Notes: generated from the letters alone by a model not told the origin. Shown: positions 9,420 through 57,498, counted from the first letter of the stretch. The stretch is 64,000 bases of DNA from Bacteroidia bacterium (GCA_039931675.1 JBDTRM010000260.1:10620-74619); one strand, 5' to 3'. Numbers and translations: made by a program.

Positions 9420-9556
9420 TGATGATTTGAATTTCGAATTTCGAACAAATGAATTTTGAATATTGAAGTTTAATCCTTCGTGTTTCAACATTATTATATT
9501 CTTTTAATACTGGATTCTTAATTCGTTATTCTATTGTTCTCCCGGACTAATCGGGA
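9420..9556. repeat. Inverted heptamer arrays plus a degenerate TCCCG..ATCGGGA palindrome (9540-9556) in the ftsA-ftsZ spacer
   Basis: GAATTTC GAATTTC...GAATTTT GAATATT GAAGT / CTTC...; TCCCGGACTAATCGGGA. Confidence 0.65.
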
Positions 9557-9584
9557 TATTAATTCAAAATTTATAATCTAAAAT

Positions 9585-10886
9585 TTATAATGACTTATCA
9601 TCTTCGTCATCCTGGAACAGATCCTTGATGAGCGTGATAAAATCACTTTTCTTTTTTGTAGGCTGCACGGGCGTTTTAATCGGCTCATGTTTTGCCTCAA
9701 CCATAACCAGCGGCTGCGTTTTATTTTTTGTGCGTTCAGCATCATTCAATCCCATAATCACTAAACCAACTGCAGTGGCATACATGGGACTTTTAATTTC
9801 ATCATTGCCTTTGCTGATATGCTCATTAGGATAACCAATGCGCGTATCCATGCCTGTAATTAATTCGAACAACTGCTGTATGTGTTTAAGCTGAGCACCA
9901 CCACCGGTAATAACTAAACCGGCAATCAGTTTTTTCTCAAAGCCTGAATTTTTTATTTCATAATACACATGTTCAATAATTTCTTCCATTCTCGCCTGTA
10001 TGATATGCGCAAGATTTTTTACAGAAATTTCTTTCGGTTCGCGGCCTCTTAAACCGGGTATGGAAACAATATCATTATCGCTTGTTTGTGATGCCAAGGC
10101 AGAACCAAATTTTGTTTTTAATGATTCAGCCTGTGCACGTATAATGGTGCAACCTTCTTTTATATCATCGGTAATCACATTACCACCAAAGGGAATCACG
10201 GCAGTATGACGAATTATTCCATCCTGGAAAATAGCAATGTCAGTAGTTCCTCCTCCAATATCAACTAATACAACACCTGCTTCTTTTTCTTCATCGGTTA
10301 ATACAGCTTCGGCAGATGCCAATGGTTCAAGAATTAAATCAACAGGATTTAAACCTGCTTTGCGCACACACTTCTCAATGTTTTTTGCTGCGGTTACCAA
10401 CCCTGTTATGATGTGGCAATTGGCTTCAAGACGAATGCCCGACATACCTATCGGGTCTTTGATACTTGCTTCTTTATCAACAATATATTCCTGTGGTATT
10501 ACGTGAATAATTTCTTCACCAGGCGCCATAGCGAGTTTATACATGTCATCAATAATTGCATCAATGTCCACCTGTGCTATTTCTTCATCAATATTATGAC
10601 GTGTGCGCATGCCGCGATGCTGCAAACTTTTAATATGCTGACCGGCTATACCAACATGCACATCTTTTATGCTCACGTCTGATTCAGCATCAGCATCTTT
10701 AACTGCAAGCTTTATTGCCTGAACAGTTTTTTCAATGTTAGCCACAACGCCACGCATTACACCGAATGATTCAGCCTTGCCTTTGCCAAGTATTTCTATC
10801 TTGCCGTACTGATCTCTGCGGCCAACGATGGCGCATATTTTTGTGGTGCCTATATCAAGTCCCACTATTAAATTTGAATCTTCCAT
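9585..10886 (-). CDS. ftsA: Cell division protein FtsA
   Basis: VGLDIGTTKI, VDIGGGTTD, ITGGGAQL, YATAVGL. Confidence 0.98.
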   Translation of the reverse strand: MEDSNLIVGLDIGTTKICAIVGRRDQYGKIEILGKGKAESFGVMRGVVANIEKTVQAIKLAVKDADAESDVSIKDVHVGIAGQHIKSLQHRGMRTRHNIDEEIAQVDIDAIIDDMYKLAMAPGEEIIHVIPQEYIVDKEASIKDPIGMSGIRLEANCHIITGLVTAAKNIEKCVRKAGLNPVDLILEPLASAEAVLTDEEKEAGVVLVDIGGGTTDIAIFQDGIIRHTAVIPFGGNVITDDIKEGCTIIRAQAESLKTKFGSALASQTSDNDIVSIPGLRGREPKEISVKNLAHIIQARMEEIIEHVYYEIKNSGFEKKLIAGLVITGGGAQLKHIQQLFELITGMDTRIGYPNEHISKGNDEIKSPMYATAVGLVIMGLNDAERTKNKTQPLVMVEAKHEPIKTPVQPTKKKSDFITLIKDLFQDDEDDKSL

Positions 10887-10891
10887 ATCTG

Positions 10892-10969
10892 GATTTACAA
10901 TTTACAATTTTTGATTTACGATTTTCTCTTCGTCATTGCGATCCCGATAGCTATCGGGAGAAGCAATCT
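10892..10969. repeat. GATTTAC heptamers followed by a GTCATTGCGA-[TCCCGATAGCTATCGGGA]-GAAGCAATCT element
   Basis: Read directly; element 10932-10969, palindrome 10942-10959. Confidence 0.9.
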
Positions 10970-10988
10970 TTTCTTGTTATGCGAATTC

Positions 10989-11849
10989 TTAATTTATAAT
11001 TTCTCTTTTTACACTATCCCTAACCGCTACCGGCAAAGTTGATTTCACAACTCCCTTCTTTGTACACACCACTTGATTTTCAAACTCAAGATTGATAGTG
11101 CTGTATTGCGTCCATCCGGTTTTATTTAAACCTTTGCGGTAGAACACCAGCAGCTTTTCAATTTTCTTTTCAAGATCGCCTGCATCTCCAATCAGTATAT
11201 TCTGATCTCCAATGCGTGAAATCAATTCAATCTCATTGTTTTCATTTACATATACCTGTGTGAATAATGCATTGGCAACTGAATCGCGCTGCAGGTATTC
11301 AGCTATGGCATACAATTGTTCAATGATCAATTTTTTATTGGCAGTATCATTTGCAATAAATGCCTGTTCTTTAATTCTTCTTCTTGTATATCTTTCATTG
11401 ATCACTCCGCTTGCAACAATAACATTAGGAGTGTACTTATCTGACACCGGCATCAAATATCCTTCATCATCTATATAAAAATTTTCACCTTCAGTATTGA
11501 TAATCCTTATAATTGGTGTGCGTTGCTTTACCCTAATATTCAGCTTTCCGTTAAGGGTTGAAAATACTTCTGCATTTGCCACGAAAGGATTTGTATTGAT
11601 GATAGTTTCTAACAAAGCCGTGTTAATTTCATTTATAGGTTTTCCGAGGGGTTGCTTGCCTTTGCTGTTTAGTAATTCTAACACATCATTATTCTCAATA
11701 AAATAATTGCCTGCATCATCGGCAATGTCAATCTGAACCGCATTGCATTTTACATCATTCTGTTTTACATTAACGAATGCAACCGACAGTATCACTGCGA
11801 ATCCGAGCAGTGTCCATAAAATATACGGTATGTATTTTTTGAATTTCAT
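10989..11849 (-). CDS. ftsQ: Cell division protein FtsQ/DivIB
   Basis: N-terminal TM helix, VKQRTPIIRI, INLEFENQVVCTK; lies between murC and ftsA. Confidence 0.9.
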   Translation of the reverse strand: MKFKKYIPYILWTLLGFAVILSVAFVNVKQNDVKCNAVQIDIADDAGNYFIENNDVLELLNSKGKQPLGKPINEINTALLETIINTNPFVANAEVFSTLNGKLNIRVKQRTPIIRIINTEGENFYIDDEGYLMPVSDKYTPNVIVASGVINERYTRRRIKEQAFIANDTANKKLIIEQLYAIAEYLQRDSVANALFTQVYVNENNEIELISRIGDQNILIGDAGDLEKKIEKLLVFYRKGLNKTGWTQYSTINLEFENQVVCTKKGVVKSTLPVAVRDSVKREIIN

Positions 11850-11856
11850 GGCTTAA

Positions 11857-13251: not shown

Positions 13252-13325
13252 TTTGATTTACGATTTACGATTTTTGATTTACGATTTTTCCCTCTTAACC
13301 GTCATTGCGAGGAACGAAGCAATCT
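13252..13325. repeat. GATTTAC heptamers followed by the 'empty' GTCATTGCGAGGAACGAAGCAATCT element
   Basis: Element at 13301-13325, identical to 50641-50665 and to 58210-58234 (reverse). Confidence 0.9.
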
Positions 13326-13367
13326 GTTTTTGATTTAAGATTTTACTACCAACTGCCACCACCACTA

Positions 13368-15612: not shown

Positions 15613-15698
15613 TTTTGATTTACGATTTACGATTTTTGATTTACGATTTGCTTTATTCACGTCATTGCGATCCCGATAGCTATCGGGAGAAGCAATCT
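15613..15698. repeat. GATTTAC heptamers followed by the palindrome-filled GTCATTGCGA...GAAGCAATCT element
   Basis: Element 15661-15698, identical to 10932-10969. Confidence 0.9.
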
Positions 15699-32186: not shown

Positions 32187-32388
32187 TGAATGATAAATAA
32201 TGAATGTTGAAGTTTGCACATCCTAATTTATTCTCCCGATAACTACCGGAGTCAAAATTCATTATTTGTTTTCATTGCCTTCAACATTCAAAGTTCAACA
32301 TTCAACATTCGTCATTCCTCTGATTCATTTTTTGTTTTCATTGCCTTCAACATTCAATATTCATCATTCATCATTCATCATTCAACAT
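32175..32388. repeat. Inverted heptamer arrays (GAATGAT/ATCATTC) with a duplicated right arm and a degenerate 18-bp palindrome
   Basis: GAATGTT GAATGAT...GAAGT; two copies of TTTGTTTTCATTGCCTTCAACATTCAA; TCCCGATAACTACCGGAG at 32234. Confidence 0.8.
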
Positions 32389-36607: not shown

Positions 36608-36871
36608 TTATTCCCTTTACTACTTTAACTTGCGGGGGAGGCAATTTAATTGTTTGTGATTTGTAAATTGAAAAATGAAAGGTAAGTTACAGCATCAAAG
36701 TTCCATCTCTTTTTAAAATGCAAAGTTGTGAAACCATTTCAAATAAAAAATTTTAAAAAAAAGGTGCAGGGTTTAAACATGTTTTGTTAATGCTGTTATG
36801 TCTTTATTATATAAAAATGGGATAAATTATAACACCTTTAAACCTTATCCCGATGGCTATCGGGAGAATCC

Positions 36872-36991
36872 AAACCTTAGTAGAAAACCAATAGCAAAAT
36901 CAAGACCTCCCGACCAATCTGGAACCTTATTTTCTCAGAAAAATAAGGTAATAAGGTTGTTATTGAGGGCAGTATATTTCTACTAAGGTTT
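36872..36991. repeat. 120-bp element with perfect 15-bp terminal inverted repeats
   Basis: AAACCTTAGTAGAAA (36872-36886) and TTTCTACTAAGGTTT (36977-36991). Confidence 0.8.
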
Positions 36992-37078
36992 TTTATTCGC
37001 ACCGGAATTTTCAGAGCAATTAATAGTACTTTTTTATTCCATTTTTAATATAATAATCAGAAACCTACACTACTATCA

Positions 37079-37117
37079 ATAACATTCACAATATAGGTTG
37101 GTTAATAGCTGGTGGTG
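37079..37117 (+). repeat. att-like direct repeat, copy 1
   Basis: ATAACATTCACAATATAGGTTGGTTAATAGCTGGTGGTG; 32/39 identical to 38053-38091 and 20/22 identical to 41961-41982. Confidence 0.75.
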
Positions 37118-37127
37118 CAAAGCCGCG

Positions 37128-37964: not shown

Positions 37965-38052
37965 GATAGTTATTTTTTTAAAATTATTTGAGATGAAATA
38001 TTTCAATGCTTTTTAATTTTATTAAATGAGGTCTCCCTGAGAAAAACCATCT

Positions 38053-38091
38053 ATAACTTTTACGCTATAGGTTGGTTAACAGCAGGTGGCG
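38053..38091 (+). repeat. att-like direct repeat, copy 2
   Basis: ATAACTTTTACGCTATAGGTTGGTTAACAGCAGGTGGCG. Confidence 0.75.
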
Positions 38092-38301
38092 TGTTAAATA
38101 TTTAATTCAGTAAATATAAAAACAAAACAATATGCATCGCAGTGATAAATAATTGATAAAAGGAGAGGTAATGAAAGTGTTTTTTATCGCTGCGTTGAGT
38201 AATTTTGTTTAATTAGTTAGCTCAATGGTGGTTGAACATCTGACAAAAAAAATGAAAGTTCAGAAGCCTTCATTTACCTGAATTTCTTTTTTAATATTTT
38301 T

Positions 38302-40169: not shown

Positions 40170-40323
40170 GAGCGTTTTTTTATTTGTGAATTTACCTGAG
40201 ATGTTAACAGTTAAGTGTAATGGTTTTGTAAACTTCAGGCACTAAAGATATAATTTTTTGTACCAGGTTATGCCTTTGTAATTTCTGATGCAACTTTCTG
40301 AAAAATTTATAATCATACTTTAT

Positions 40324-40346
40324 CCACGCGATACAATCGCGCGCAA
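40324..40346 (+). repeat. CACGCGATACAATCGCGCGCA REP-like element
   Basis: Further copies near 41737, 41835, 48656 and 48826, and an inverted copy near 48875. Confidence 0.85.
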
Positions 40347-40422
40347 GAATGACAAGAATGAACTTATGAAAATTAAAATCAGTTCATATATTTTTCCTTA
40401 TTTTATAAAAAATTTATCCATC

Positions 40423-41724: not shown

Positions 41725-41735
41725 CTTGTACGATC

Positions 41736-41930
41736 TGCACGTGATACAATCGCGCGCACGAATAAATTAACGGCAATTTACTTCCGGAAATTCCGATAGC
41801 TATCGGGATTCAACTTTCCGAAAGTTTACAGACTACACGCAATATAATCGTGGGCAAGATTGAAATGAAAATGGAACGTAAGTTTTTAGAGCGAACTGAA
41901 GTTCACTGTTACAGGCTGCGCATGTGAACT
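41736..41930. repeat. Cluster of REP-like elements, including a palindrome-filled ACTTTCGGAAAGT hairpin
   Basis: CTGCACGTGATACAATCGCGCGC; TACTTCCGGAAA-TTCCGATAGCTATCGGGA-TTCAACTTTCCGAAAGT; CTACACGCAATATAATCG; GAACTGAAGTTC. Confidence 0.75.
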
Positions 41931-41960
41931 GCCTTTTGGAAAAATTTTGACAAGCAAACA

Positions 41961-41982
41961 ATAACTATCACAATATAGGTTG
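41961..41982 (+). repeat. att-like direct repeat, copy 3
   Basis: ATAACTATCACAATATAGGTTG, 11 bp beyond the TonB-receptor stop. Confidence 0.7.
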
Positions 41983-41993
41983 ATATAAAAAAA

Positions 41994-44312: not shown

Positions 44313-44427
44313 CGAAAAAATCAAAATTAATAACCGGGCTAAGATGGAAAATAAAATGCTTACGCCTAATCATGAATATGTAAAAGTTGATTTCAGCATA
44401 TAAACAAACGTCTAATGACGCGAATGC

Positions 44428-44874
44428 TTATGTCGTAAGCAATTGCTTCACCAAAATCGAAACAACCTTGTTATCAGCCTTGCCTGCAAAATGTTTAGTA
44501 GCTGCACCCATCACCTTTCCAAGATCGCCAAGACCTTTTGCATCCACCTGTGCAATCAGTTTTTGCAATTCTGATTTTATCTCGTCTTCGCTCATCATTG
44601 AAGGCAGGTATTTTTCAATTACTGCTACCTCTTCAATTTCTGTTTGGGCAAGGTCAGCGCGGTTTTGCTGCTGGTATATTTCAATGCTGTCTTTGCGCTG
44701 CTTGACTAATTTCTGCAATAATTTAGATTCAGTTGTCTCATCTAACTCGCCTTTGCCGCTGGTGTTTTCTAATAATATAGCCGATTTTATCGCACGCAAT
44801 GCCCGCAGTGCTGCTTCATTCTTCGACTTCATAGCTTCCTTTAAATCGTTGTTTATTTTTTCCTGTAAGTTCAT
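44428..44874 (-). CDS. GatB/YqeY domain protein
   Basis: INNDLKEAMK, LRAIKSA, KQRKDS, YLP, DLGKVMG. Confidence 0.92.
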   Translation of the reverse strand: MNLQEKINNDLKEAMKSKNEAALRALRAIKSAILLENTSGKGELDETTESKLLQKLVKQRKDSIEIYQQQNRADLAQTEIEEVAVIEKYLPSMMSEDEIKSELQKLIAQVDAKGLGDLGKVMGAATKHFAGKADNKVVSILVKQLLTT

Positions 44875-45057
44875 TGTAGAAATTTTGAGCTTTAAATTTT
44901 AAATTTTGAATGAGTTATCCTCCGCTTATCGCAGCGAAATTATAAATTAGTTGGTAAGATGATAAATAAGTAAATCAATCTTGAGGAAGAATTCAAAAAT
45001 TTATATGATTCAGAGAATGATGGAAGGCACCAAAATTTTTCTCCGATACAGATTTGA

Positions 45058-48000
45058 TCATCTAATAACAAACGTTGCTGTGTAAATCACATCACCCGAA
45101 AATATTTGCAGGGAATAAATTCCTTTTGCAGCACCAATTACTTCTACATCAATTTTATTTTGACTGATAAGTTTGCTCCGGGTTTTTAAAATTCGGCCAA
45201 GAGCGTCAATGATATGAATGGAGTAATCATTTCTGATAGGTTGATTTATGGATATAGAAAAACTGCCAGAGTTTGGATTGGGAGTGATTGCTAATTGCCA
45301 ATTGCCAATTGACAATTGTGAAATTCCTGTAATTGTGATCACATTGCTCACACCTTCACAACCTACAGTGTCAGTAATAATTACATAATAGTCTCCGGCT
45401 TGTTGAGGTATGTAGTAGCTGTTAGTAGCTCCGGGTATGATACCTCCTGCAACATTGTACCATTGATAAGCAACTCCGTAAGATGAAAACAGTGTATCAC
45501 CTGACTGCGTGATTGTAGCCAATGGCGCTTGATATTCCTGGATAAAGTTTACAAGCAATATTGAATCGCATCCTGCCGCATTACAGGCAATAAGCTTTAC
45601 ATCAAAGCTGCCGTAATTATTGTAGCAAATATTAGCAGGATTTTGCAGCGTGCTTGAGGTACTATCGGCACCGGGAAAATACCATTGCCATGAAGTTGGA
45701 TTATTTGTGCTGAGATCATAAAAGTCAATGCAGCGTTTCTCACAGAAGGTGGTATCATTGCTCATAAAATTAACCAGCAGAGCCAAGGCTGTAATTGATA
45801 TGATATTTGAAGTTGCACTGCATCCTGCACTGCTGGTTACGATTACGTAATAATCCCCAACCGATGGTGGAACAAGATAACTACTTGTAGATCCGGCTAT
45901 AATCCCTGTGGCAACACTATACCATTGATAACTAAAGGCGAACGATGAATATAATACTCCTCCTGATAATGAAATCACAGCCGTAGGTATAGGGCTTGCG
46001 TTAATAAAACCGGGCATCACTAATGTATCGCAGCCGACACTATTGCATGAAATCAAGGTTACATCAAAACTTCCATAACTGTTATAACATAGGTTGGATG
46101 GATTTTGAACTGTGCTTGTTGCAGGAACTGCTCCCGGGAAAAACCATTGCCATGAAGTAGGACTGTTGGTGCTCAGATCATAAAAGTCAACGCATTTGTA
46201 TCCGCAGAAGCTGGTATCATTGCTCATCAGGTTAACCACAGGAAGTACAGCGTTAACTGTCAGTGTATTTGAAGTTGCGCTGCATCCTGAACTGTTGGTT
46301 ACCACAACATAATAATTGCCAACCGTAGCTGGAGTAAAAGAACTGCCTGTTGCTCCCGGAATGAGTCCTGATACGCTGTACCACTGGTAAGTAAATGCCG
46401 GAGATGCATATAAAGTGCCTGCTGATTGTGTGATTATAACTGTTGGCGGAGCAATCGTATTAATAAATCCGGGTATCACCAATGTATCACAACCACCACC
46501 ATTACATGCAATCAACGTTACATCAAAGCTCCCGTAACTGTTATAACATACGTTGGTTGGATTTTGAACTGTGCTTGATGCCGGAACTGCTCCGGGAAAA
46601 CTCCAGTTCCATGATGTTGGATTGTTGGTGCTGAGATCATAAAAGCCAATGCAATTGTTGACGCAAAAAACGGTATCAGATGAATATAAATTTATAACAG
46701 GCACATTACACAGAATTGTATTGAGCATAATACTGTCGGTAGCAAAGCAGCCGCTGTCTTCAACCGTAACAAAATAAGTTCCGGCTGCAGTTGCAGTAAA
46801 GGTTGAATTAGTGGAACCATTTTGCCACTGGTAAGAATGATGCGCACCTGCATTTATAAGAAATGCTGTGCCTGAACAAAATGTTGTGTCAGGGCCTAAG
46901 TTTAGCGTGGGCAAGGGATGTATTGTTACCTCGATTTGCATTGAATCTGTACCACCCATGTAATATAAAATAACATCTACATTATAGGTTCCGGGAGCGG
47001 TAAAAATATGTGAGGGATTAAAAAAGGTGGAGAAGTTATCTGCGCCTGATGCGGGATCATCAAAATCCCACTGTGCTCCAAAAAGGCTTGCGCCAAATGA
47101 AAATACAAACTGTGTAGTATCACCAAAACAGTTGTTATAGTAATAAGTGGTGGTGTCAGAAAACTTAACAACCCAGTAGTCACTGCCGCCAGAATGTGGT
47201 GGATGGGTGCAGTAACCGCCAGTACTGTATGGATTAAATGAAGCAGCAATTATACTCCTGTTTTCTCCTTCCATGGCGAGGCTTAATTCATGATGGCCAT
47301 TAGTTAATACAGTTTTGTCCCAAAGAATAGTTCCCGAATTATCAATTTTAAAAACCCAGGGTTGTTCTGTACCGAGTGTGTTAGCTTCAGTTTTATCTCC
47401 GCTGATATTACTGTAAGATGTACTGGTCACAACAAAATTACCATCGTGTGTTTTAGAAGCCATTACATTTTCGTCTTCATCGGAATTACCACCGCATGAT
47501 CTATCCCATAACTTATTTCCTAAGGCATCTATTTTAACAAGCCAGACATCGGTATTGCTTCCTCCATGTAGGGGGCTTGTTTTATTACCGCTTACATTTG
47601 AAGTTGAATTTCCGGATAATAGAAAACCTCCATCATCACAAAGTATTACACTATAAAGATTGTCATAACTGTTACCACCAAATCTTTTATCCCAAAGCTT
47701 GTTTCCCATCGAATCAATTCTTACTACCCAATAATCATTACCTCCCCATGCAGGTTGACTAACATCACCTGAAATCCCAGATTGAGTGATACCCCCAATT
47801 AAGAAACCATGATCTGCTGTTTGAACAACAGACATTACATTTTCAGTACTTGAACCTCCGAAATCAACATCCCATAACTTGTTAAGGGTATGATCTGTTT
47901 TAATAATCCAAAAGTCATTGCCCCCTTTACCGGGAACAGATTTGTCACCATCAATTCCTGCATTTGTGGAGCAAATTATTAAAACTCCATTATCGGCAGT

Positions 48001-48504
48001 AGGTAATACCTTCGCATTCAATCCTTCAGATTGTGAGGTGCCGAAATTAGCTTGATCGAGCAATGCACCTGAACTGTCAATCCTGATTACCCATACATCA
48101 CTGTAACCAAAATTAGCTTGCATTTTATCACCACCTATACCAGAATTGCTTGCACCCACAACAAGATAGGTAGTATTACTTTCAACAACTATATTGTATG
48201 CGTAGTCGTCACTGGTTCCTCCAAATCGCTTGTCCCATTTCTTAATCCCATTTTGATCAACTTTTATAACCCAAAAATCACCTGATGCATTCCAACTACC
48301 TTGTGTCTTTTCAAAACTGATTGGAGAATTTGATTGTCCGGCAATCAGATAATTAAAATCAGGAGTTAAAGTCATATCATAAGGATAGTCATAAGCACTC
48401 CCGCCATAAATATTGTCCCACATTTTTACTAACGGGGCTTGGGCATATAAAGCGTTAGAAAAAAAAATAAGAAAAAACACTGATATTAAGGTAGAAGGTT
48501 TCAT
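45058..48504 (-). CDS. T9SS cargo: GD(K)-repeat beta-propeller plus PKD/Ig-like modules and CTD
   Basis: Repeats DxWxxKxDxxGNKxWDxxxGG; three DLSTNxPTSWxWxFPGA...YGSFDV modules; PNPN...GIY CTD; start at MKPST. Confidence 0.85.
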   Translation of the reverse strand: MKPSTLISVFFLIFFSNALYAQAPLVKMWDNIYGGSAYDYPYDMTLTPDFNYLIAGQSNSPISFEKTQGSWNASGDFWVIKVDQNGIKKWDKRFGGTSDDYAYNIVVESNTTYLVVGASNSGIGGDKMQANFGYSDVWVIRIDSSGALLDQANFGTSQSEGLNAKVLPTADNGVLIICSTNAGIDGDKSVPGKGGNDFWIIKTDHTLNKLWDVDFGGSSTENVMSVVQTADHGFLIGGITQSGISGDVSQPAWGGNDYWVVRIDSMGNKLWDKRFGGNSYDNLYSVILCDDGGFLLSGNSTSNVSGNKTSPLHGGSNTDVWLVKIDALGNKLWDRSCGGNSDEDENVMASKTHDGNFVVTSTSYSNISGDKTEANTLGTEQPWVFKIDNSGTILWDKTVLTNGHHELSLAMEGENRSIIAASFNPYSTGGYCTHPPHSGGSDYWVVKFSDTTTYYYNNCFGDTTQFVFSFGASLFGAQWDFDDPASGADNFSTFFNPSHIFTAPGTYNVDVILYYMGGTDSMQIEVTIHPLPTLNLGPDTTFCSGTAFLINAGAHHSYQWQNGSTNSTFTATAAGTYFVTVEDSGCFATDSIMLNTILCNVPVINLYSSDTVFCVNNCIGFYDLSTNNPTSWNWSFPGAVPASSTVQNPTNVCYNSYGSFDVTLIACNGGGCDTLVIPGFINTIAPPTVIITQSAGTLYASPAFTYQWYSVSGLIPGATGSSFTPATVGNYYVVVTNSSGCSATSNTLTVNAVLPVVNLMSNDTSFCGYKCVDFYDLSTNSPTSWQWFFPGAVPATSTVQNPSNLCYNSYGSFDVTLISCNSVGCDTLVMPGFINASPIPTAVISLSGGVLYSSFAFSYQWYSVATGIIAGSTSSYLVPPSVGDYYVIVTSSAGCSATSNIISITALALLVNFMSNDTTFCEKRCIDFYDLSTNNPTSWQWYFPGADSTSSTLQNPANICYNNYGSFDVKLIACNAAGCDSILLVNFIQEYQAPLATITQSGDTLFSSYGVAYQWYNVAGGIIPGATNSYYIPQQAGDYYVIITDTVGCEGVSNVITITGISQLSIGNWQLAITPNPNSGSFSISINQPIRNDYSIHIIDALGRILKTRSKLISQNKIDVEVIGAAKGIYSLQIFSGDVIYTATFVIR

Positions 48505-48596
48505 GGAAGCGGAGCTTAGTTGTAATAAATAATTAATAAGTAAATGTATAAGAATTATTTTATGGCAAGGCAAAAAATATTTGACATTGTCGGTTC

Positions 48597-48897
48597 AACT
48601 TTCGGAAAGTGGAAGGAACTTTCCGAAAGTCTCCACCAGAAAAACTTTGTTGACTGCACGCGATACAATCGCGCGCGAGATTGACGGGTTCTACTTTCGG
48701 AAAGTTCCTTCAACTTTCCGAAAGTTTAGGAAAGGGGAATTTCTTTTGTTGCAGGTTTTGGAAAGTTGTGCAGATCAAAATGTCTGACACCCGAAAAAGG
48801 TGTCTGACATTGAACTTCACTGACTGCACGCGATACAATCGCGCGCAAGAATTAATCGCGCGCAAGAATTAATCGCGCGCGATTGTATCGCGTGCGA
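48597..48897. repeat. Dense cluster of at least three REP-like families
   Basis: ACTTTCGGAAAGT hairpins (48597-48630, 48693-48725), GCACGCGATACAATCGCGCGC copies, TGTCTGACAC pair, and a 17-bp tandem AATCGCGCGCAAGAATT. Confidence 0.85.
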
Positions 48898-48905
48898 GAA
48901 TGAAT

Positions 48906-50582
48906 TCACCCCAGATACTTAGCCACAATAGGCATTCTGCGGCCAAGACCAAAAGCGTGTGGTGATACACGTAAAATAGGTGCAAACTGGTATCGTTTAA
49001 ATTCATTGTTGTTTACTAATCGCAAAACTCGTTTTACAAGAGCCTCATCAATCCCCAAACTGATAATATCATTTATGCTTTTTCGGTTTTCGATATACTG
49101 AAATAAAATATTGTCGAGCACTTCATAAGCGGGTAATGAATCAGAATCTTTTTGCCCGGGGCGCAGTTCTGCTGATGGTGCTTTGGTAATTATGTTGGCA
49201 GGAATAATTTCTTTATTGCGATTAATATAATGCGCCAATTCATATACATCGGTTTTGTACAGATCGCCTATTACAGATAATCCACCGCACATATCACCGT
49301 ACAAAGTTCCGTAGCCTACGGCTAATTCACTTTTGTTGGATGTGTTGAGGAGGATGTGACCAAATTTATTGGCTAACGTCATGAGTAAACTACCGCGTAT
49401 GCGCGCCTGCAGATTTTCTTCAGCAACATTAAAAGGTAAACCTTTAAAAAGCGGATTCAATTCATTTTCGAAACTTTGAAAAATATCTGCAACAGGTATT
49501 TTGTAAAATGTAGTGCCAAGATTTGTAATCATTCGTTCAGAATCCATAACAGAATGTTCAGATGAAAACTGCGAAGGCATCATCACAGGGAACACATTTT
49601 CTTTTCTAAGTGCTTCCACAGTTAGCGCATAAACCACAGCGGAGTCAATACCTCCACTCATGCCTAACGCTGCGGTTTTAAAATTCATTTTTGTAAAAAA
49701 ATCTTTGATACCGAGAAGCAAAGCAGAATGAATGCGTTCTGGCTTTGTTGTTTGTGCACTTCGACTTCTCCCGATAGCTATCGGGACAGTGTGACCCAAA
49801 TTTCGAATTTCGAATTTCGAATTTCCAACTTCAAAGTCCACCACCCTAACCTCTTCTTCAAAATAATTTAATTCTTCAACTATACTTCCATCTTTATCCA
49901 ACACCATTGAACCGCCATCAAAAATAATATCAGTTTGTGCGCCTACCTGGTGTATGTAAAAAATGGGTAGATGATATTTCAGCGCATTTTTTTTCAGTGT
50001 GTCTTTCCTTATTTCTGCATGTACGTAACTGAATGGCGATGCTGCTATGTTTACAATAAAATCAGGATGCTCATTCACCAAATCATCCATCGGACAATAA
50101 GTGTATAATGGATCATCTTCAAGATTCCATAAATCTTCGCATATAGTGAGTGCTATTTTTTTTCCTGCACAGGTGATACATTCAAAACTTTTCGCAGGTT
50201 CAAAATAACGGTACTCATCAAACACATCATAAGTGGGGAGCAATGCTTTATGTGTTACCGATTTAATTTTTCCATCTTCAAGAAAATAAGCAGAATTGTA
50301 TAAATTCTTTCCATCCATAACAGGGTTTATAGTGGGAGAGCCTACAATGGCTGCAATACCTTTACATGCCAATGCAATTTCATCTATCGCTTTTAGACAT
50401 TTATAAATAAAATCATCAAACTCTAAAAAATCAAGTGGGGGATATCCGCACACGCTTAACTCTCCAAACACAATTAAATCAACCTTTTGTGCTTTAGCAT
50501 CATTAATGGCATTGATAATTTTCTTCGTGTTGTATTCGAAGTTACCGATGTGATAGTTAAGTTGTGCAAGTGCTATACGCAT
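48906..50582 (-). CDS. nadE: Glutamine-dependent NAD+ synthetase
   Basis: Nitrilase domain (ELSVCGYPP, ICEDLW) plus synthetase domain (SGGIDS, ENLQARIR, NKSE, PSAELRP); start at MRIALAQ. Confidence 0.97.
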   Translation of the reverse strand: MRIALAQLNYHIGNFEYNTKKIINAINDAKAQKVDLIVFGELSVCGYPPLDFLEFDDFIYKCLKAIDEIALACKGIAAIVGSPTINPVMDGKNLYNSAYFLEDGKIKSVTHKALLPTYDVFDEYRYFEPAKSFECITCAGKKIALTICEDLWNLEDDPLYTYCPMDDLVNEHPDFIVNIAASPFSYVHAEIRKDTLKKNALKYHLPIFYIHQVGAQTDIIFDGGSMVLDKDGSIVEELNYFEEEVRVVDFEVGNSKFEIRNLGHTVPIAIGRSRSAQTTKPERIHSALLLGIKDFFTKMNFKTAALGMSGGIDSAVVYALTVEALRKENVFPVMMPSQFSSEHSVMDSERMITNLGTTFYKIPVADIFQSFENELNPLFKGLPFNVAEENLQARIRGSLLMTLANKFGHILLNTSNKSELAVGYGTLYGDMCGGLSVIGDLYKTDVYELAHYINRNKEIIPANIITKAPSAELRPGQKDSDSLPAYEVLDNILFQYIENRKSINDIISLGIDEALVKRVLRLVNNNEFKRYQFAPILRVSPHAFGLGRRMPIVAKYLG

Positions 50583-50584
50583 GT

Positions 50585-50665
50585 GGGGATTGGGTAATTG
50601 AGGTAATTCGGAAATTGGGTTACTCGTTATTGGATGATTCGTCATTGCGAGGAACGAAGCAATCT
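50585..50665. repeat. 8-bp periodic repeats plus the GTCATTGCGAGGAACGAAGCAATCT element upstream of nadE
   Basis: GGATTGGG TAATTGAG GTAATTCG GAAATTGG...; element at 50641-50665. Confidence 0.75.
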
Positions 50666-50744
50666 GTTGATGTATAAAACTGATTTAAAGATTTGGTGAT
50701 TTTTTATTCTTAATTCAATTCATCGGACAAATAACAATAAAAAA

Positions 50745-50779
50745 ACAAATCCGCAGAAAAAATATTTCTGCGGATTTGT
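50745..50779 (-). terminator. Rho-independent terminator after the porT-like gene
   Basis: ACAAATCCGCAGAAA-loop-TTTCTGCGGATTTGT with an A-run on its left (U-tail on minus). Confidence 0.8.
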
Positions 50780-50801
50780 GAATCGAATGTTTTTATGAAT
50801 A

Positions 50802-51389
50802 TTAAAACAAAATTCCAATCTCTAATTCAACAGAATTGTTTTTAACGCTAATGTCGCTTGATTTAAAAGCATCAATAAATCCATTATTCCAAACCAATCC
50901 TGCAAAGATCATGGTCTGATCTGAAATTTCATATTCAGCTCCGCCACCTATTTTCAAAGCCAGGTAAAAATCATTTACGCCACCAGGTACTTCATCTCCT
51001 TTGGTGCCAAGGCTCCAGCCCGGTGATAAACCAAACTTTGCATAAAAAAGTTTTTTATCCATTTCTTTGGTATGCATTTTTATGGTTATTGGTACTTCAA
51101 GATATTGTAAGTTGTAATTATACTTAGTATCAGCATACTTAAGATTACCACCACGGTATGAAAAATCAATTCCCGAGCAAAAAGAATACCTGCTTCCAAA
51201 GAAATATTCGGCAACTAATCCATACGAAAAACCTACTTTCGCCCCCCCGCTTTTAACTCCATCGGTTGTTGAAGTCAGCCATTTAACTGAAGGTGTGGCA
51301 TGTAAGCCAAACTTCCATTGAGATTCAGGTTGACTGTAAGATGAAAAAGTAGTTAGCGCAATAATTAATAACAGAAATAGTTTTTTCAT
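50802..51389 (-). CDS. Outer-membrane beta-barrel protein (PorT-like/porin family)
   Basis: Signal peptide, YLEVPITIK, terminal ELEIGILF. Confidence 0.8.
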   Translation of the reverse strand: MKKLFLLLIIALTTFSSYSQPESQWKFGLHATPSVKWLTSTTDGVKSGGAKVGFSYGLVAEYFFGSRYSFCSGIDFSYRGGNLKYADTKYNYNLQYLEVPITIKMHTKEMDKKLFYAKFGLSPGWSLGTKGDEVPGGVNDFYLALKIGGGAEYEISDQTMIFAGLVWNNGFIDAFKSSDISVKNNSVELEIGILF

Positions 51390-51417
51390 AATTAAGTGTC
51401 GTTTTTATTTTGATGCA

Positions 51418-52470
51418 ATGTTAAATAATATTTTCCAAAAACAATTTTTAGCTATAACTGTGTTTCTTTTTTTTGTGCTGTGCATAACATCATGCACGCA
51501 TCAAAACAAAACCGATGAAAAGAAACACATTGATGTTAGTGAAGTTCCATTAAAATTAAATTTTGATCGCTTTGATAATGACTTGATGAGTCCCGATTCG
51601 CTCAATGAAAAAAATGTGCCAGCACTGAAAAGAAAATACGGATCCTTCTTTACCATATTTTGTCGTAAGATATGTCCCATACCGGTACACATGACCAGTG
51701 ATACAGCAATTGCACGACAGCTTAACTTTTTCAAGTTCGATAAAGACATAAAAGAAATTTATTCGAGCATTGATACAATGTATAAAGATGATCACCTGCT
51801 ACAGCAGCAGTTAACAGAAGTTTTTAAACATTATCATCATTATTATCCTGACAGCATTATACCACATGTAGTTACTTTTTTTTCTGCTTTTAATTATGCC
51901 ACTATTACAACAGATAGTATATTGGGTATAGGTCTTGATTTTTATCTCGGCAGCGACTGCCCTTTTTATACGGGCACTAATTTTCCCACTTATTTAACGA
52001 AGCGTTTACGGGGTGAATATATTGTGCCCAATTGTGTACAAGGCTGGTATCAAAAGTCAAATGATATCAATAAAGTAAAAAATGATTTGTTGTCGCAGAT
52101 GGTTTATTATGGCAAGATGATGTATTACACAGACCTGATGATGCCTGATGCACCTGATAGTATAAAGTTAGGCTATAGTGATATGCAGGTGAAATGGTGT
52201 GCCGGTAACGAAGCCAATATGTGGGCTGCATTAATCGAACAAAATTTATTGTACTCCACTAACATGCGTCAATACATGAAATTCATTAGTGACGGACCTA
52301 CTACGCAAGGCTTCCCGAAAGAATCACCTTCGCGTATCGGTTACTATGTTGGCTGGCAAATTGTAAAAGCCTACATGGAAAAGCATCCTGAAATAACACT
52401 TGCGCAATTATGCAAAGAAGAAGATGCACAAAAAATATTAAATGAATCGAAGTATAAACCGAATAAATGA
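51418..52470 (+). CDS. gldB: Gliding motility lipoprotein GldB
   Basis: Lipobox ITSC, IGLDFYLG, MVYYGK, SPSRIGYYVGWQIVKAYM, SKYKP. Confidence 0.9.
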   Translation: MLNNIFQKQFLAITVFLFFVLCITSCTHQNKTDEKKHIDVSEVPLKLNFDRFDNDLMSPDSLNEKNVPALKRKYGSFFTIFCRKICPIPVHMTSDTAIARQLNFFKFDKDIKEIYSSIDTMYKDDHLLQQQLTEVFKHYHHYYPDSIIPHVVTFFSAFNYATITTDSILGIGLDFYLGSDCPFYTGTNFPTYLTKRLRGEYIVPNCVQGWYQKSNDINKVKNDLLSQMVYYGKMMYYTDLMMPDAPDSIKLGYSDMQVKWCAGNEANMWAALIEQNLLYSTNMRQYMKFISDGPTTQGFPKESPSRIGYYVGWQIVKAYMEKHPEITLAQLCKEEDAQKILNESKYKPNK

Positions 52471-52502
52471 TTTACGATTTTTGATTTACAATTTACGATT
52501 TG
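52469..52502. repeat. GATTTAC heptamer array overlapping the gldB stop
   Basis: TGATTTACGATTTTTGATTTACAATTTACGATTTG. Confidence 0.8.
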
Positions 52503-52622
52503 CGTGAGCATTAAAAGTATCTGATCCATCATCTTCAAAAATATACTTGCTTCAATTGAAAAGTGACTGGAATAAAAAAAATAATCGGTGTAATCATATT
52601 TAATCATTGAAATCCTTTATAA

Positions 52623-52952
52623 ATGAAACAAACAGAAATAAAATTCAACATTACATTAGATGAGCAAAGTCATCCTGAAAAAATTGAATGGATGGCCACA
52701 GACTCAGGCGTGGAAGGTCTGAAAGAAGCAAAGGCATTTATGCTTTCGGTATGGGATGCAAAAGACCCCGGCACACTGCGCATTGATTTATGGAATAAAG
52801 ATATGATGGTGGAAGAAATGAAACGTTTTGTTTACGATACCATGCAAAGCCTTGCATCTACTTATGCCAATGCAACCAACGATGAAGCAATAGCAAAAGA
52901 GATTCGTGATTTCAGTATTTCGATTGGAAAGAAAACGGGAGTGATTGGGTAA
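52623..52952 (+). CDS. gldC: Gliding motility protein GldC
   Basis: EIKFNITLDE..PEKIEW.A, AKAFMLSVWD, TLRIDLW.KDM.VEEMKRF. Confidence 0.93.
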   Translation: MKQTEIKFNITLDEQSHPEKIEWMATDSGVEGLKEAKAFMLSVWDAKDPGTLRIDLWNKDMMVEEMKRFVYDTMQSLASTYANATNDEAIAKEIRDFSISIGKKTGVIG

Positions 52953-52989
52953 GGTAGAGCTATCGAGTTTGGGGTTACACTGTAGCAAT

Positions 52990-55560
52990 CTACTGCACCA
53001 TAACCTTCCCCCGATAAACTTTACCTCCATTAATTACTTCAACAAGGTAAGGCCCTTTTGCTGCACTTTCCATATTTACATCAACCACATTTTGCCCTTT
53101 GCTTCTTGCTTCTTGCCTCTTGCTTATTGTCTGACCAAGTGGATTAGTGATGTGAAGTGAAAAATCTTTGGTAATGGATAAGGTTAGGATAATTGTAAAA
53201 TTTCCATCATTAGGATTAGGCACAATTGCCATTTGCCCCTTGCCTCTTGCCTCTTCGTTTATTCCCATAATTACAATTGTATTACTCGCGCCTTCGCAGC
53301 CGGTGGTATCTGTAACGATAACATAGTAGCTGCCGCCATGTGTTGGTATGTAGTAATAGTTATTGGCTCCTGCTATGATGCCGCTATCAACACTCCACCA
53401 TTGATAAGCAACACCGGGCGATGAAAACAAAGTATCGTTTGATTGCGTAATGGTTGGTGTTGGTGCAGGGTACTCATTAATAAAACCCGGCAGCACCAGC
53501 GTATCACAACCCGCAGCATTGCAGGCTATAAGCGTTACATCAAAGCTGCCGTAATTGTTGTAACAAATGTTGGTAGGATATTGCAGAGGGCTTGTTGCAC
53601 TATCTGCACCCGGGAAAAACCATTGCCATGAGGTGGGGTTGTTGGTGGAGAGATCGAAAAAGTCGAGGCAATGCTTTTCGCAGAAGGAGGTGTCGGTGCT
53701 CATTAAATTTATGGAAGGTATAACTGCAGTTATTGAAACTGTATCAGAAATTCCTGCACAACCAGTACTATCTGTAACTATTACAAAGTAATCACCAACT
53801 TGAGATGGAATAAAATAATTGTTTGTGGCTCCGGTAATAAGACCATTTGTTACACTCCACCATTGATATGTGACCGCAAGAGATGAAAACAAAGTATCAA
53901 ATGATGTAAAGATAACAGGTGAAGGCAAAGGATACGCATTAATGAAATTTGTAAGTACTAAAGTATCACAACCCGCAGCATTGCAGGCTATAAGCGTTAC
54001 ATCAAAGCTGCCGTATTGATTGTAGCAAATGTTGGTTGGGTTTTGCAGTGTGCTTGTTGTACTATCAGCACCTGGAAAAGACCATTGCCACGAGGTTGGG
54101 TTGTTGGTGCTTAAATCGAAGAAATCAAGGCAATGCTTTTCGCAGAAGGAGGTGTCGGAGCATGATAAATAAATTGTAGGCAAAGTTACTTGTATTGTAT
54201 CCCAAAACTTAATTATCCAGTAATCATCTGCTCCTTGTGCGGGCTGTGTTTTGTCACCTCCTATTCCCCCATACGTAAAATTAGCTATTGCATAGCCTCC
54301 GTCATTTGTCTGAATTGCCAAACCAATTTCTTCATGTCCTAAGGTTAAGGTTGTTTTGTCCCACTGTTTATTCCCAATTGAGTCGGTTTTAATTACCCAT
54401 GTTTGTTCCGTTCCTAAATTGTTTTCTGTTTTGTCACCACTAATCGGAGAATAAGAAGTTCCGGCAATCAAATAACCTCCGTCAGAAGTTTGCGAGATAT
54501 TTCCAAATTCATCCTCATTTGCATTTCCTCCATAATCCTTATCCCATTGCTTATTCCCAAATGAATCAACTTTTACAATCCAATAATCTGTAGCTCCCCC
54601 CCATAAAGGTTGTGTTTTATCACCTCCTATACCTGAATATGATGCCCCTCCTAAAATATACCCTCCATCTGTAGTTTGTTTCAATGAAATAAGGACATCG
54701 TTATCAACTCCCCCATAACATTTGTCCCATTGCTTGTTTCCAATAGAATCAATCTTTACTATCCAATAATCGCTATAACCGTTCCAAGCAGGTTGCGTTT
54801 TATCTCCACTAATCGGAGACGATGATTTCCCGCCTAAAATATATCCTCCATCGGTGGTTTGTTGTAACGAATAAAGCCAATCAGCGCTCGATCCACCATA
54901 TCTTTTATCCCATTGTTTAATTCCAATAGAATCAACTTTTATTATCCAGAAATCAGCGTTCCCCCATGAGGGTTGGCTTTTATCACCGTTATTTCCTGAG
55001 TATGACCAACCTCCTAAAATAAATCCTCCATCAGTAGTTTCTTTTATACACTGAAGTGCATCATTATCTGTTCCTCCGTAATCTTTATCCCATTGTTTAT
55101 TGCCTTGGGAATCAATTTTTATTATCCAGAAATCATTTGATCCCCATGAAAGTTGTGTTTTATTTCCTGTTATATTGGAAGCGGACCATCCTCCTAAAAT
55201 ATATCCTCCATCAACAGTTTGTTGCAATGACGACATAAAATCTCCCGCATTCCCACCAAATCTTCTGTCCCATTGCTTAATGCCAAGGGAATCAATTTTT
55301 ACTACCCAGTAATCAGAGATCCCCCAGCTTCCCTGTGATTTATCACCACCCTTTTTTGAATCGGAATACCCTCCTAAAATATATCCCAAGTCTGTTGTTT
55401 GTTGAAATGATCGAAGGTATTCAGTGCTCGTCCCTCCAAACCTTTTATCCCACTGCTTCACCAACGGATTCTGCGCACGCAGCACCCCGCAACTCATCCC
55501 AAACAAAAACAGGAGACCAATCACTTTTAACCTTTGCCGTATAGGTAGATGCAATTTCAT
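52990..55560 (-). CDS. T9SS cargo: GDK-repeat beta-propeller plus two PKD/Ig-like modules and CTD (paralog of 45058-48504)
   Basis: QQTTDGGYILGG...GDKTQ...DYWIVKID repeats; start at MKLHLP. Confidence 0.85.
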   Translation of the reverse strand: MKLHLPIRQRLKVIGLLFLFGMSCGVLRAQNPLVKQWDKRFGGTSTEYLRSFQQTTDLGYILGGYSDSKKGGDKSQGSWGISDYWVVKIDSLGIKQWDRRFGGNAGDFMSSLQQTVDGGYILGGWSASNITGNKTQLSWGSNDFWIIKIDSQGNKQWDKDYGGTDNDALQCIKETTDGGFILGGWSYSGNNGDKSQPSWGNADFWIIKVDSIGIKQWDKRYGGSSADWLYSLQQTTDGGYILGGKSSSPISGDKTQPAWNGYSDYWIVKIDSIGNKQWDKCYGGVDNDVLISLKQTTDGGYILGGASYSGIGGDKTQPLWGGATDYWIVKVDSFGNKQWDKDYGGNANEDEFGNISQTSDGGYLIAGTSYSPISGDKTENNLGTEQTWVIKTDSIGNKQWDKTTLTLGHEEIGLAIQTNDGGYAIANFTYGGIGGDKTQPAQGADDYWIIKFWDTIQVTLPTIYLSCSDTSFCEKHCLDFFDLSTNNPTSWQWSFPGADSTTSTLQNPTNICYNQYGSFDVTLIACNAAGCDTLVLTNFINAYPLPSPVIFTSFDTLFSSLAVTYQWWSVTNGLITGATNNYFIPSQVGDYFVIVTDSTGCAGISDTVSITAVIPSINLMSTDTSFCEKHCLDFFDLSTNNPTSWQWFFPGADSATSPLQYPTNICYNNYGSFDVTLIACNAAGCDTLVLPGFINEYPAPTPTITQSNDTLFSSPGVAYQWWSVDSGIIAGANNYYYIPTHGGSYYVIVTDTTGCEGASNTIVIMGINEEARGKGQMAIVPNPNDGNFTIILTLSITKDFSLHITNPLGQTISKRQEARSKGQNVVDVNMESAAKGPYLVEVINGGKVYRGKVMVQ

Positions 55561-55605
55561 GGGTTGTTCTTTATGGTGTGAATCTAATAAAAAAAGCCCT
55601 TGTCG

Positions 55606-55796
55606 GTTAAACTTCAACAAAGTGAAAAAACTTTGTCGAAGTTATATGCGGACGAAAACTTTGCTGAAGTTCCTTCACTTCGGCAAAGTTGCTTTGGAAG
55701 ACTACCGTTAAACTTCAACAAAGTGAAAAAACTTTGTCGAAGTTATATGCGGACGAAAACTTTGCTGAAGTTCCTTCACTTCGGCAAAGTTGCTTT
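55606..55796. repeat. Exact duplication of a 90-bp double-hairpin unit (101-bp period)
   Basis: 55606-55695 is identical to 55707-55796. Confidence 0.92.
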
Positions 55797-55850
55797 ATAA
55801 GTCTGAATGTCATTATATTGATGATTTTCTGCCATAATGTGTGCTTTTTA

Positions 55851-56186
55851 ACAAATGAGGGGCATTTCCCTTGACCGGAAACCCCCTCCGTGGTCACGGA
55901 AGGGTGTTTTCCTTAACCGGAATGCCTCTCCATTGTCACGGAAGAGAGTTTTCCTTTACGGAAATGCTTCTCCATTGTCACGGAAGTGAGTTTTCCTTTA
56001 CGGGAATGCCTCTCCGTTGTCACGGAAGTGAGTTTTCCTTTACGGGAATGCCTCTCCATTGTCACGGAAGAGAGTTTTCCTTTACGGGAATGCCTCTCCG
56101 TTGTCACGGAAGAGAGCTTTCCCTTACAGAGATGCTTCTCCGTTGTCAAGGAACGGAGTTTTCCTTTGCAGAAATGCCTCTCCTAA
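55851..56186. repeat. 42-bp tandem array (7 units plus 1 degenerate unit)
   Basis: GTCACGGAAGWGAGTTTTCCTTTACGGGAATGCCTCTCCRTT units start at 55893, 55935, 55977, 56019, 56061, 56103 and 56145. Confidence 0.95.
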
Positions 56187-56573
56187 GTAAAGCGATAAAG
56201 ATTTTTTAAAAATTATTAAGCTGCTCATCATTAAGATAAGCGGGGTGGAGAGCTTAATTTCTGTGCGATTCAAAATTCAGAAGTGTGTGCTATATTATAA
56301 AGCACCTTCTGTGGGGGTGTGAGGGAGAGTCGTTTCTTTCTTATTTCATAAATGTTAAAGTGGGGGAGATTTTAATTGTCAGGATTTTTTTAAATAAAGT
56401 GTAAGCAATTGTAATTTTTAACTTGATAAATATTCTTAGTAATCGGAGTGTTTTTTCGAGCGGGCTAATGTAGATACGTTTTTATAATCTCCAAATTCTG
56501 AATTAAAATTTCGGCCGGGGAGGCTGAGGTAACATGAGTTGGGGATAAGACTTATACATGAAACGGGTTTGAA

Positions 56574-57182
56574 TCACTTCTTCAAACTAAATAGCTTATT
56601 CGATTTTTCAATAAAGTGAAGCACTTCATCGCGGCCTGTTTGTTTCTCGGCTGAGGTTACGAAGCATGGCGGCAGTTCTTCCCAGCTTTCGAGTACTGCT
56701 TTTTTAAATTTTTCCACTGATGCACGGGTCTTGTTAACTGTTTGCTTATCGGCTTTGGTAAAGGCTAACGCTATAGGTACACCTTGCCCGCCTAACCAGT
56801 TAATAAATGTCAAATCATTTTCCTGCGGATCAATGCGCGTATCTATTAAAATAAAAACGCACATCAGGTTATCGCGCGTGAGCAAATAGTTGCGAATCAT
56901 TTTTTCCCATGTGGCCGTAATTGTTTTTGGCACACGAGCAAAACCATAACCGGGTAAATCAACTATCCAGAAATTTTCATTTACTTCAAAATGATTAATC
57001 AGTTGTGTCTTGCCCGGTGTGGATGATGTTTTGGCAAGCTTATTCTGGTTAACCAGCATATTAATCAATGATGACTTGCCCACATTACTGCGACCTATAA
57101 AAGCGTACTCAGGCTTTATGGGTTTGGGACATTGCTCTGCTTTTTCAGAACTCTTAATAAAGGTGGCAGTCTTAATAATCAT
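56574..57182 (-). CDS. yihA: Ribosome biogenesis GTPase YihA/YsxC (EngB)
   Basis: GRSNVGKSS, PGKTQLIN, DLPGYG, TKADK, TSA. Confidence 0.96.
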   Translation of the reverse strand: MIIKTATFIKSSEKAEQCPKPIKPEYAFIGRSNVGKSSLINMLVNQNKLAKTSSTPGKTQLINHFEVNENFWIVDLPGYGFARVPKTITATWEKMIRNYLLTRDNLMCVFILIDTRIDPQENDLTFINWLGGQGVPIALAFTKADKQTVNKTRASVEKFKKAVLESWEELPPCFVTSAEKQTGRDEVLHFIEKSNKLFSLKK

Positions 57183-57281
57183 GGTTTTAATTTTATGCAA
57201 AACTATTTTTTTAATTGGAAGGGGAGTGAAAGTGAAACTGAAGGTGTTCGATAAGTGAACTAATCAGTCACCGCGCAATTT

Positions 57282-57498
57282 GGCATCCTGAAAGGAACCT
57301 CTGTGAAAATGAACGCATGTTTGTATTTGTCCCGATTTGGTCGGGATTGGTTGTTTGAAACCGCTTTTCATTTAAATTCGAAAGTCTAATAATCTCCTTT
57401 CAATCTAACAATATTGCGTAATCAGGGAATTCGTTTTCAAACACAGAAGTTCCTTTCAGGATGACAGTCGCGGGTAGCAAGGTTCCTTTCAGGATGAC
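57282..57498. mobile_element. MITE/REPIN-like element with 22-bp inverted ends
   Basis: CATCCTGAAAGGAACCTCTGTG (57284-57305) against CACAGAAGTTCCTTTCAGGATG (57442-57463), 21/22; extra end copy at 57481-57498. Confidence 0.6.

Follow-up and report, generated by a model that had tools for sequence, protein, structure and literature searches.

Is the 18-bp palindrome that recurs inside unrelated repeats of a Bacteroidia bacterium a minimal mobile element, and how could so short a sequence spread? The question arises from a 64,000-nucleotide (nt) stretch of this organism's DNA (GCA_039931675.1 JBDTRM010000260.1:10620-74619, hereafter the window). An earlier note, made from the sequence alone, had described the palindrome in two kinds of host repeat (host repeats 1 and 2) and proposed a very small, sequence-targeted element that replaces the 5-mer GGAAC without target duplication. 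We analyzed the window, the assembly under study (6.93 Mb, 300 contigs, hereafter the genome or G000), and other genomes and sequence collections. Our results establish that the element is genuine: a non-autonomous mobile hairpin of only 15 to 18 nt, found phylum-wide and similar in kind to the small dispersed repeats (SDRs) of cyanobacteria. It replaces the target, as proposed, but its targeting fits structure, a hairpin or a 3-nt loop with unpaired neighbors, and not the GGAAC 5-mer or a GAA flank.

Genome-wide, the 18-mer occurred in 47 exact copies, and its 14-bp core was the commonest 14-bp palindrome (89 copies, the runner-up having 11). The two outer pairs covary, with five versions and pairing kept in 75 of the 89 exact cores. 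The family YYCCGA-N3-6-TCGGRR, with both outer pairs complementary, numbered 236 copies in the genome (115 18-mers, 101 16-mers, 14 17-mers, and 6 15-mers). The looser pattern CCGA-N2-8-TCGG, also with both outer pairs complementary, was matched 260 times, compared with 13 to 48 times for nine control arm pairs.

Among 41 related genomes, 22 also had the core and none the control, and TCCCGA-N3-6-TCGGGA was matched in 175 of 201 Bacteroidota genomes (control, 0 to 4 per genome). At least 10 family copies were present in 64 of 200 Bacteroidota genomes, here called high-copy genomes; the richest, G117, has 237 copies in 2.4 Mb. In G117, G125, and G153 (L181, L182, and L193), we observed a ~150-nt repeat that offers as many as three slots for hairpins, each occupied by family members. 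The exact 18-mer occurs in ~25,000 stored stretches of the GTDB collection, as estimated from 1/64 of the collection, and in 52 viral stretches. Among 127 titles fetched, 124 were Bacteroidota, including named cultured isolates, and the other three were unnamed or labeled Variovorax. Hosts outside Bacteroidota are likely. One record titled Variovorax paradoxus (L094/G241) carries 38 family copies in a genome of 3 Mb, and its title may be wrong. Across 117 metagenome sites of host repeat 1, in DNA of 29 to 66% GC, a single stem carried 63 different loops, with TAGCTA occurring only twice, which identifies the stem as the conserved part of the element. A literature search found no description of the element and no paper with the core sequence, most subscription journals and supplements lying outside its coverage; the only match to a search with the encoded peptide was an oak proteomics paper.

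To what extent does insertion remove target sequence? Empty paralogous alleles could be paired with 117 of the 236 copies, compared with 29 of 470 control positions, which showed a flat length spread. The replaced pieces measured mainly 3 (12 pairs), 4 (3), 5 (47), 6 (13), 7 (28), 11 (5), or 12 nt (2), with peaks at 3, 5, and 7 nt, and a length of 0 was seen in only one low-complexity case. No target duplication was detected, and target bases were lost in 116 of 117 paralogue pairs and in 33 of 33 tRNA pairs (see below), the overall range being 3 to 17 nt. The proposal of a very small element that replaces without duplicating its target was therefore supported.

The replaced pieces share a structural property. 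When at least 4 nt long, they began and ended with complementary bases in 45 of 57 junction types (shuffled expectation, 22.4 ± 2.9), as in G-GAA-C, GC-GAA-GC, and AAAT-TGT-ATTT. After collapsing by host, paired ends were found in 25 of 33 classes, or in 23 of 31 without the boundary-ambiguous T..A cases, and purine..pyrimidine pieces were paired in 21 of 22. There were 44 junction classes in total, and we read the 3-nt class as a bare loop. The neighbors of the insertion behaved oppositely: in 195 distinct sites of the genome and 169 of other genomes, the -1 and +1 bases avoided pairing (29 versus 61.8 ± 6.0 and 31 versus 52.4 ± 5.4, respectively), and T was scarce at -1 (8% versus 35% here and 6% versus 32% elsewhere). 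A minority of sites had a flanking stem of at least 6 bp (9 versus 3.1 here and 13 versus 1.4 in other genomes). No fixed flank motif was found. GGAAC is indeed what is replaced in host repeats 1 and 2, but it is one of many replaced pieces; likewise, GAA directly follows six window copies, as had been noticed, but only 47 of the 195 sites here and 10 of the 169 elsewhere. Both were accordingly dropped as general rules. Cleavage of each strand on the 5' side of a purine was also considered; it fits many junctions but fails for T..A and C..G, and paired ends fit better. In the genome, the loops of 16-mers were polar relative to their flanks (34 versus 6 of 49), which fits a one-strand process. 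Orientation relative to transcription (38 antisense versus 22 sense) was similar to that of empty hosts, and no replication-strand bias could be read from the fragmented assembly of this genome. A sister family, YCCGCC..GGCGGR, replaced 10- to 12-nt hairpins in all 5 pairable copies of 20.

Within the window, the copies and the filled and empty alleles listed by the earlier note were all recovered. Two exact copies lie in host repeat 1, a CGTC-type repetitive extragenic palindrome (REP): one at 10942..10959, between ftsQ-like and ftsA genes, where it replaces GGAAC, and one at 15671..15688, between murD and ftsW (host repeat at 15661-15698). The filled repeat at 10931..10969 (+ strand) has a predicted fold with a z score of -4.0, in which the element is the top of the host hairpin, with an unpaired GA/GAA internal loop beneath it. 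Empty host repeats 1 were seen at 13301..13325 (+), with a GGAAC cap, 50641..50665 (+), and 58210..58234 (-). Host repeat 2 is filled at 41791..41808 (-) by a one-mismatch copy that replaces GGAAC and is empty at 60724..60756 (+) and 48693..48725 (-); we found an additional empty variant at 48598..48630 (+). About a dozen copies elsewhere (G000:C107:48708, C126:49626, and others) are a bulged 19-mer variant in host repeat 2 with a net gain of 14 nt. The remaining members comprise a one-mismatch 18-mer at 36848..36865 (+) within an AACCTT..CCAAACCTTAG repeat, a degenerate 16-nt member with one arm mismatch at 36908..36923, and a 17-nt member at 57330..57346 whose empty paralogous allele is TTCAA. 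Two more lie in 7-mer tandem-repeat DNA: a degenerate 17-nt member with 5-bp arms between ftsA and ftsZ (9540..9556) and a decayed 18-nt member with four mismatches and GA/GAA flanks (32234..32251, -). Among the rows listed for 36001-56000, no filled/empty polymorphism was visible in three contig sets from a single study.

The third exact copy (49769..49786, -) occupies a third host repeat (GGGTCACACTG..GAAGTCGAAGTG), where AGC is replaced for a net gain of 15 nt. It is translated in frame as VPIAIG in the interdomain linker of a glutamine-dependent NAD synthetase (NadE; open reading frame [ORF] at 48906..50645, -), as part of a nested insert of 7-mer repeats, host repeat, and element. The NadE linker is longer than in five of five relatives. 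Mechanical ORF calling places the start at 50643-50645, within an empty copy of host repeat 1; translation more likely begins at residue 23, the first residue of the Pfam match.

Elsewhere, the element was inserted in REP-like repeats, 7-mer tandem repeats, terminator-like hairpins, and the element itself, as well as in structured RNAs (RNase P RNA, a SAM-I riboswitch, and RT-17 RNA). By crude ORF calling, 29 of the 236 copies lie within ORFs of at least 150 amino acids, some of them being chance matches or ORF over-extensions. The clearest case is single-copy purB, which carries exactly five extra residues, in frame, that are missing in five of five relatives, one of them 87% identical; this provides an orthologous empty site of the kind the earlier note had proposed to look for. 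Two further proteins differ from their paralogues by a five-residue gap, and the orthologues of L220 and L221 were too divergent for defining the junction. We also observed that the YD|GK turn of beta-propeller repeats has acquired several different hairpin-derived peptides (repeat proteins of G000:C199, C176, C28, and C45). In three viral contigs (L152, L174, and L175), the element lies in a hairpin just upstream of a reverse transcriptase gene of the diversity-generating retroelement (DGR) type, with an RT-17 RNA match in L175.

Spare tRNA copies gave a second, independent view of the junctions. Of 60 hairpins at loci where a filled copy accompanies an intact tRNA, 33 were pairable, two of the 33 belonging to the sister family. 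The 33 represent 24 distinct events, 16 of which replaced at least 4 nt, with paired ends in 15 of the 16. Among the replaced pieces were exact 17-nt anticodon arms, sub-arms of 15 nt, and hairpins outside the native fold (CGAGTTCG, CCTGTCACGCAGG); the remaining events concerned D- or T-loop triplets. Since some replaced hairpins are missing from the folded tRNA, recognition appears to operate at the DNA level and not through selection on RNA shape. At G000:C121:4630-4929 (L231), three tandem 5' copies of tRNA-Thr(TGT) have the anticodon arm swapped for the element and are followed by an intact tRNA at the contig end. Among ordinary tRNAs of the genome, only 1 of 34 had an element within 150 nt.

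The element stands in for a hairpin or a 3-nt loop, and on balance we lean toward the reading that it is spread by a nuclease-assisted swap of single-strand hairpins. The target hairpin or loop would extrude on one strand, from single-stranded DNA (ssDNA) or a cruciform, and a structure-specific nuclease would cut both feet of the looped-out target. A freed element hairpin, with its two ends side by side, would then enter the gap opposite the looped complement and be sealed by host ligase, and refilling of the donor strand from its intact complement would yield a net gain in copies. Such a swap would account for the lack of duplication, the paired ends, the variable replaced length, the unpaired neighbors, and self-nesting.

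Which nuclease might be involved? The earlier note had suggested correlating the element with candidate genes, and both Y1 transposases and GIY-YIG genes proved to be associated with it. A profile of tRNA-linked GIY-YIG genes matched 44 of 64 high-copy genomes versus 28 of 136 others, with corresponding figures of 61 and 86 for Y1 transposases and of 62 and 99 for four-helix-bundle genes. The total GIY-YIG count correlated with copy number (rho, 0.41), yet eight high-copy genomes had a single match. The position of the element does discriminate. We took the best match from 40 of the top-ranked among the 72 matching genomes (one skipped); 36 of these 40 GIY-YIG loci have a tRNA, and 22 have an element within ~1 kb (18 by strict count versus 0.19 expected), the set including genomes with only 2 to 6 copies. 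In contrast, none of 15 Y1 loci in four high-copy genomes was flanked by the element, and in the genome no element lay within 500 bp of four-helix-bundle genes or of other GIY-YIG genes (eight GIY-YIG genes examined). The profile matched only the tRNA-linked gene in the genome. The nearest solved relatives of the candidate are the UPF0213 proteins 1ZG2 and 1YWL, and NCBIfam gave one weak match, TIGR01453. We observed tandem arrays of 5 to 13 small GIY-YIG genes of the tRNA-linked type at G112:C2:365015-368832, G165:C1:2851929-2855113, and G080:C19. Clustering of neighboring genes (the genome plus 179 loci) revealed no dominant family, tRNA-linked GIY-YIG genes being present in only four loci. 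The tRNA-linked single-domain GIY-YIG family is our best candidate for the mobilizing nuclease, a provisional assignment. Still more tentatively, the element may exemplify a phylum-wide class of 15- to 18-nt mobile DNA, close to the lower size limit of a replicator. Such a class would exchange hairpin for hairpin on ssDNA or cruciforms through these nucleases and host ligase, would extend to several sister hairpin families, and would place inserts of five residues in housekeeping proteins.

Several observations weigh against the swap and its candidate enzyme. As to the junctions, 119 of the 236 copies could not be paired with an empty allele whose replaced piece is at most 12 nt, and a search at 13 to 35 nt gave no convincing partner; 8 of the 33 classes of at least 4 nt have unpaired ends, as do most in the 3-nt class (4 of 11 paired); and in host repeat 2 the piece that is lost does not cap the predicted main stem but overlaps it. 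The TGNN loop polarity was not reproduced in the 117 metagenome sites, and the polar copies here have hosts in common. Five closed genomes gave no consistent replichore bias (one of five, P = 0.02). As to the enzyme, its presence or absence cannot decide, because all three families are associated with the element and related genomes are not independent. The profile, whose four founding genes came from loci next to the element, had no match in 20 of the 64 high-copy genomes, including G117. Dead spare tRNA copies, confined to the GIY-YIG neighborhood, may simply be ideal neutral targets, and the genome's own tRNA-linked GIY-YIG gene is adjoined by a sister hairpin instead of the element. Finally, we know of no strand transfer by GIY-YIG enzymes. 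At G000:C98:26562-27050 (L382), we observed a tRNA-Met, a small GIY-YIG gene, and then a spare tRNA copy with its anticodon hairpin replaced by a sister 16-mer.

The same swap could instead be catalyzed by an HUH Y1 transposase of the RAYT/TnpA-REP type, cleaving and rejoining ssDNA, which we regard as unlikely but the strongest of the alternatives. TnpA-REP cuts 5' or 3' of hairpins and performs strand transfer on ssDNA (PMC8266576), Y1 genes are nearly ubiquitous in high-copy genomes, and one Y1 gene of the genome has host repeat 2 in its flank. The element, however, has neither a GTAG/GTGG foot nor a fixed cleavage dinucleotide; three genomes with 14 to 43 copies had no Y1 match; and, besides the unflanked Y1 loci of the high-copy genomes, only 2 of 18 Y1 loci in the genome carry the element, both inside a broken Y1 gene pair. 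A 22-nt double-hairpin element in a Y1 gene, revealed by comparing G000:C275:40501 (L204) with C30 (L210), cost no target bases and represents a different junction type.

We consider it improbable that no dedicated enzyme is needed and that replication or repair template switching, guided by 2 to 3 nt of flanking microhomology, copies an ectopic hairpin when the fork skips the target hairpin. The weak half-site preferences common to all copies, and the finding that no one enzyme family occurs in every high-copy genome, would agree with it. Yet even in unrelated flanks the junctions coincide exactly with the element ends and no donor flank is carried over, and the 6-bp stem is constant across the phylum while the loops vary, which suggests recognition by a protein.

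Twin target-primed synthesis seems quite improbable. Here a staggered double-strand cut would leave 5' overhangs, a reverse transcriptase or polymerase would add an identical self-complementary tail to each 3' end, and the two tails would anneal. This process would explain the palindromic insert, the target deletion, and the symmetric covariation of the outer pairs, and in the three viral loci described above copies immediately precede a DGR-type reverse transcriptase gene. Against it, the replaced lengths of 3 to 17 nt follow hairpin size, the flanks and loops are asymmetric, and the genome had no RVT_1 match at 100% completeness, although an unassembled or lost gene is possible.

Less probable still is a passenger-only role, in which the element is a variable loop within REP-like repeats, or a hairpin that binds protein or stabilizes RNA, and is kept by selection. 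Many copies are indeed passengers (28 in host repeat 1 and 22 in the GTCATCCTGA host, with clusters in one long G117 repeat), and variable self-complementary REP loops have been described (PMC3733652). But the element has 44 junction classes and is inserted in itself, and its presence in single-copy purB and in tRNA copies refutes this as a sole explanation. A library or assembly artifact is effectively refuted: Logan contigs do break at the palindrome, but independent contigs hold both junctions of the 49769 copy with no other letters (from a run possibly made on the source sample), the element's presence in cultured isolates and ~25,000 stretches excludes an adapter or linker origin, and copies decay, covary, and keep reading frames.

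It has long been an open question how repeats of ~20 nt, among them SDRs, CGTC-tagged REPs, and mitochondrial GC clusters, are able to spread. To this question the element brings a precise junction rule, namely, replacement of a hairpin or 3-nt loop without duplication, together with a candidate enzyme. This rule may mark an undescribed mode of movement; to our knowledge, replacement of a folded segment is unlike cut-and-paste, peel-and-paste, or target-primed insertion. The element explains why IPIAIG and PDSYRD peptides recur in Bacteroidota proteins and why structured RNAs of these bacteria have extra helices, and a scarless hairpin-exchange activity, if true, could serve as a DNA tool.

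Compared with known systems, the element differs from miniature inverted-repeat transposable elements and other DDE-moved elements in losing target bases where those duplicate the target site. It also differs from IS200/IS605 derivatives (PATE-like), since it has no fixed tetra- or pentanucleotide motif and 3 to 17 nt are lost, and from retro-mobile elements, given the lack of RVT_1 matches in the genome. Rickettsia palindromic elements (RPEs) are several times longer than the element, whose net gain is 15 nt by replacement of 3 nt. RPEs nevertheless resemble it as palindromes in frame within housekeeping genes (PMC3733652). The yeast mitochondrial mobile GC clusters (GC42) are tiny GC-rich palindromes in AT-rich DNA whose mechanism is open, a nuclease or reverse transcriptase being suspected; they have AG/ACT target duplications, whereas the element has none and deletes target bases (PMC4478555). 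Like REP/REPIN-RAYT systems, in which short ssDNA hairpins in high copy number and mostly intergenic are moved in trans (PMC3116915, PMC8266576, PMC6006769), the element is a short hairpin; unlike them, it lacks the GTAG/GTGG foot, is a singlet instead of an inverted doublet, removes target sequence, and does not flank a cognate Y1 gene.

The CGTC-tagged REPs and Ssn systems come closer (PMC3733652, PMC11893778), in that host repeat 1 is of the CGTC type and flanks a small GIY-YIG gene here. Ssn proteins (SsnA, cd10448; NTS/SRM repeats) are single-domain GIY-YIG enzymes that cut ssDNA next to hairpins, and the word "tRNA" is absent from the main text of the Ssn paper (PMC11893778). The element itself is a parasite of CGTC repeats and has no CGTC tag, the tag being that of the host repeat, and it is linked to another, tRNA-associated GIY-YIG subfamily. 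In the genome, we observed an Ssn-like layout for host repeat 1 and the GTCATCCTGA repeat, which flank small GIY-YIG genes (G000:C127:5250-6150; C289:55250-55950; C232).

The cyanobacterial SDR1-8, reportedly described by Elhai et al. in 2008, are said to be structured dispersed repeats of 20 to 30 nt nested in heptamer repeats, mini-transposons, and themselves. The element shows the same nesting, in heptamer hosts, in REP hosts, and in itself, although its 15 to 18 nt fall slightly under that range. It differs in being shorter, in forming one perfect hairpin, in belonging to Bacteroidota, and in having no fixed target motif, and it may differ also in replacing a host hairpin or 3 nt. SDRs are ~20 nt long and apparently mobile with no gene of their own (PMC2884548, PMC4390886), and SDR5 is placed precisely in HIP1 (PMC4390886). 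Of the systems compared, it is these cyanobacterial SDRs that the element appears to work most like, and they are probably its closest known kind.

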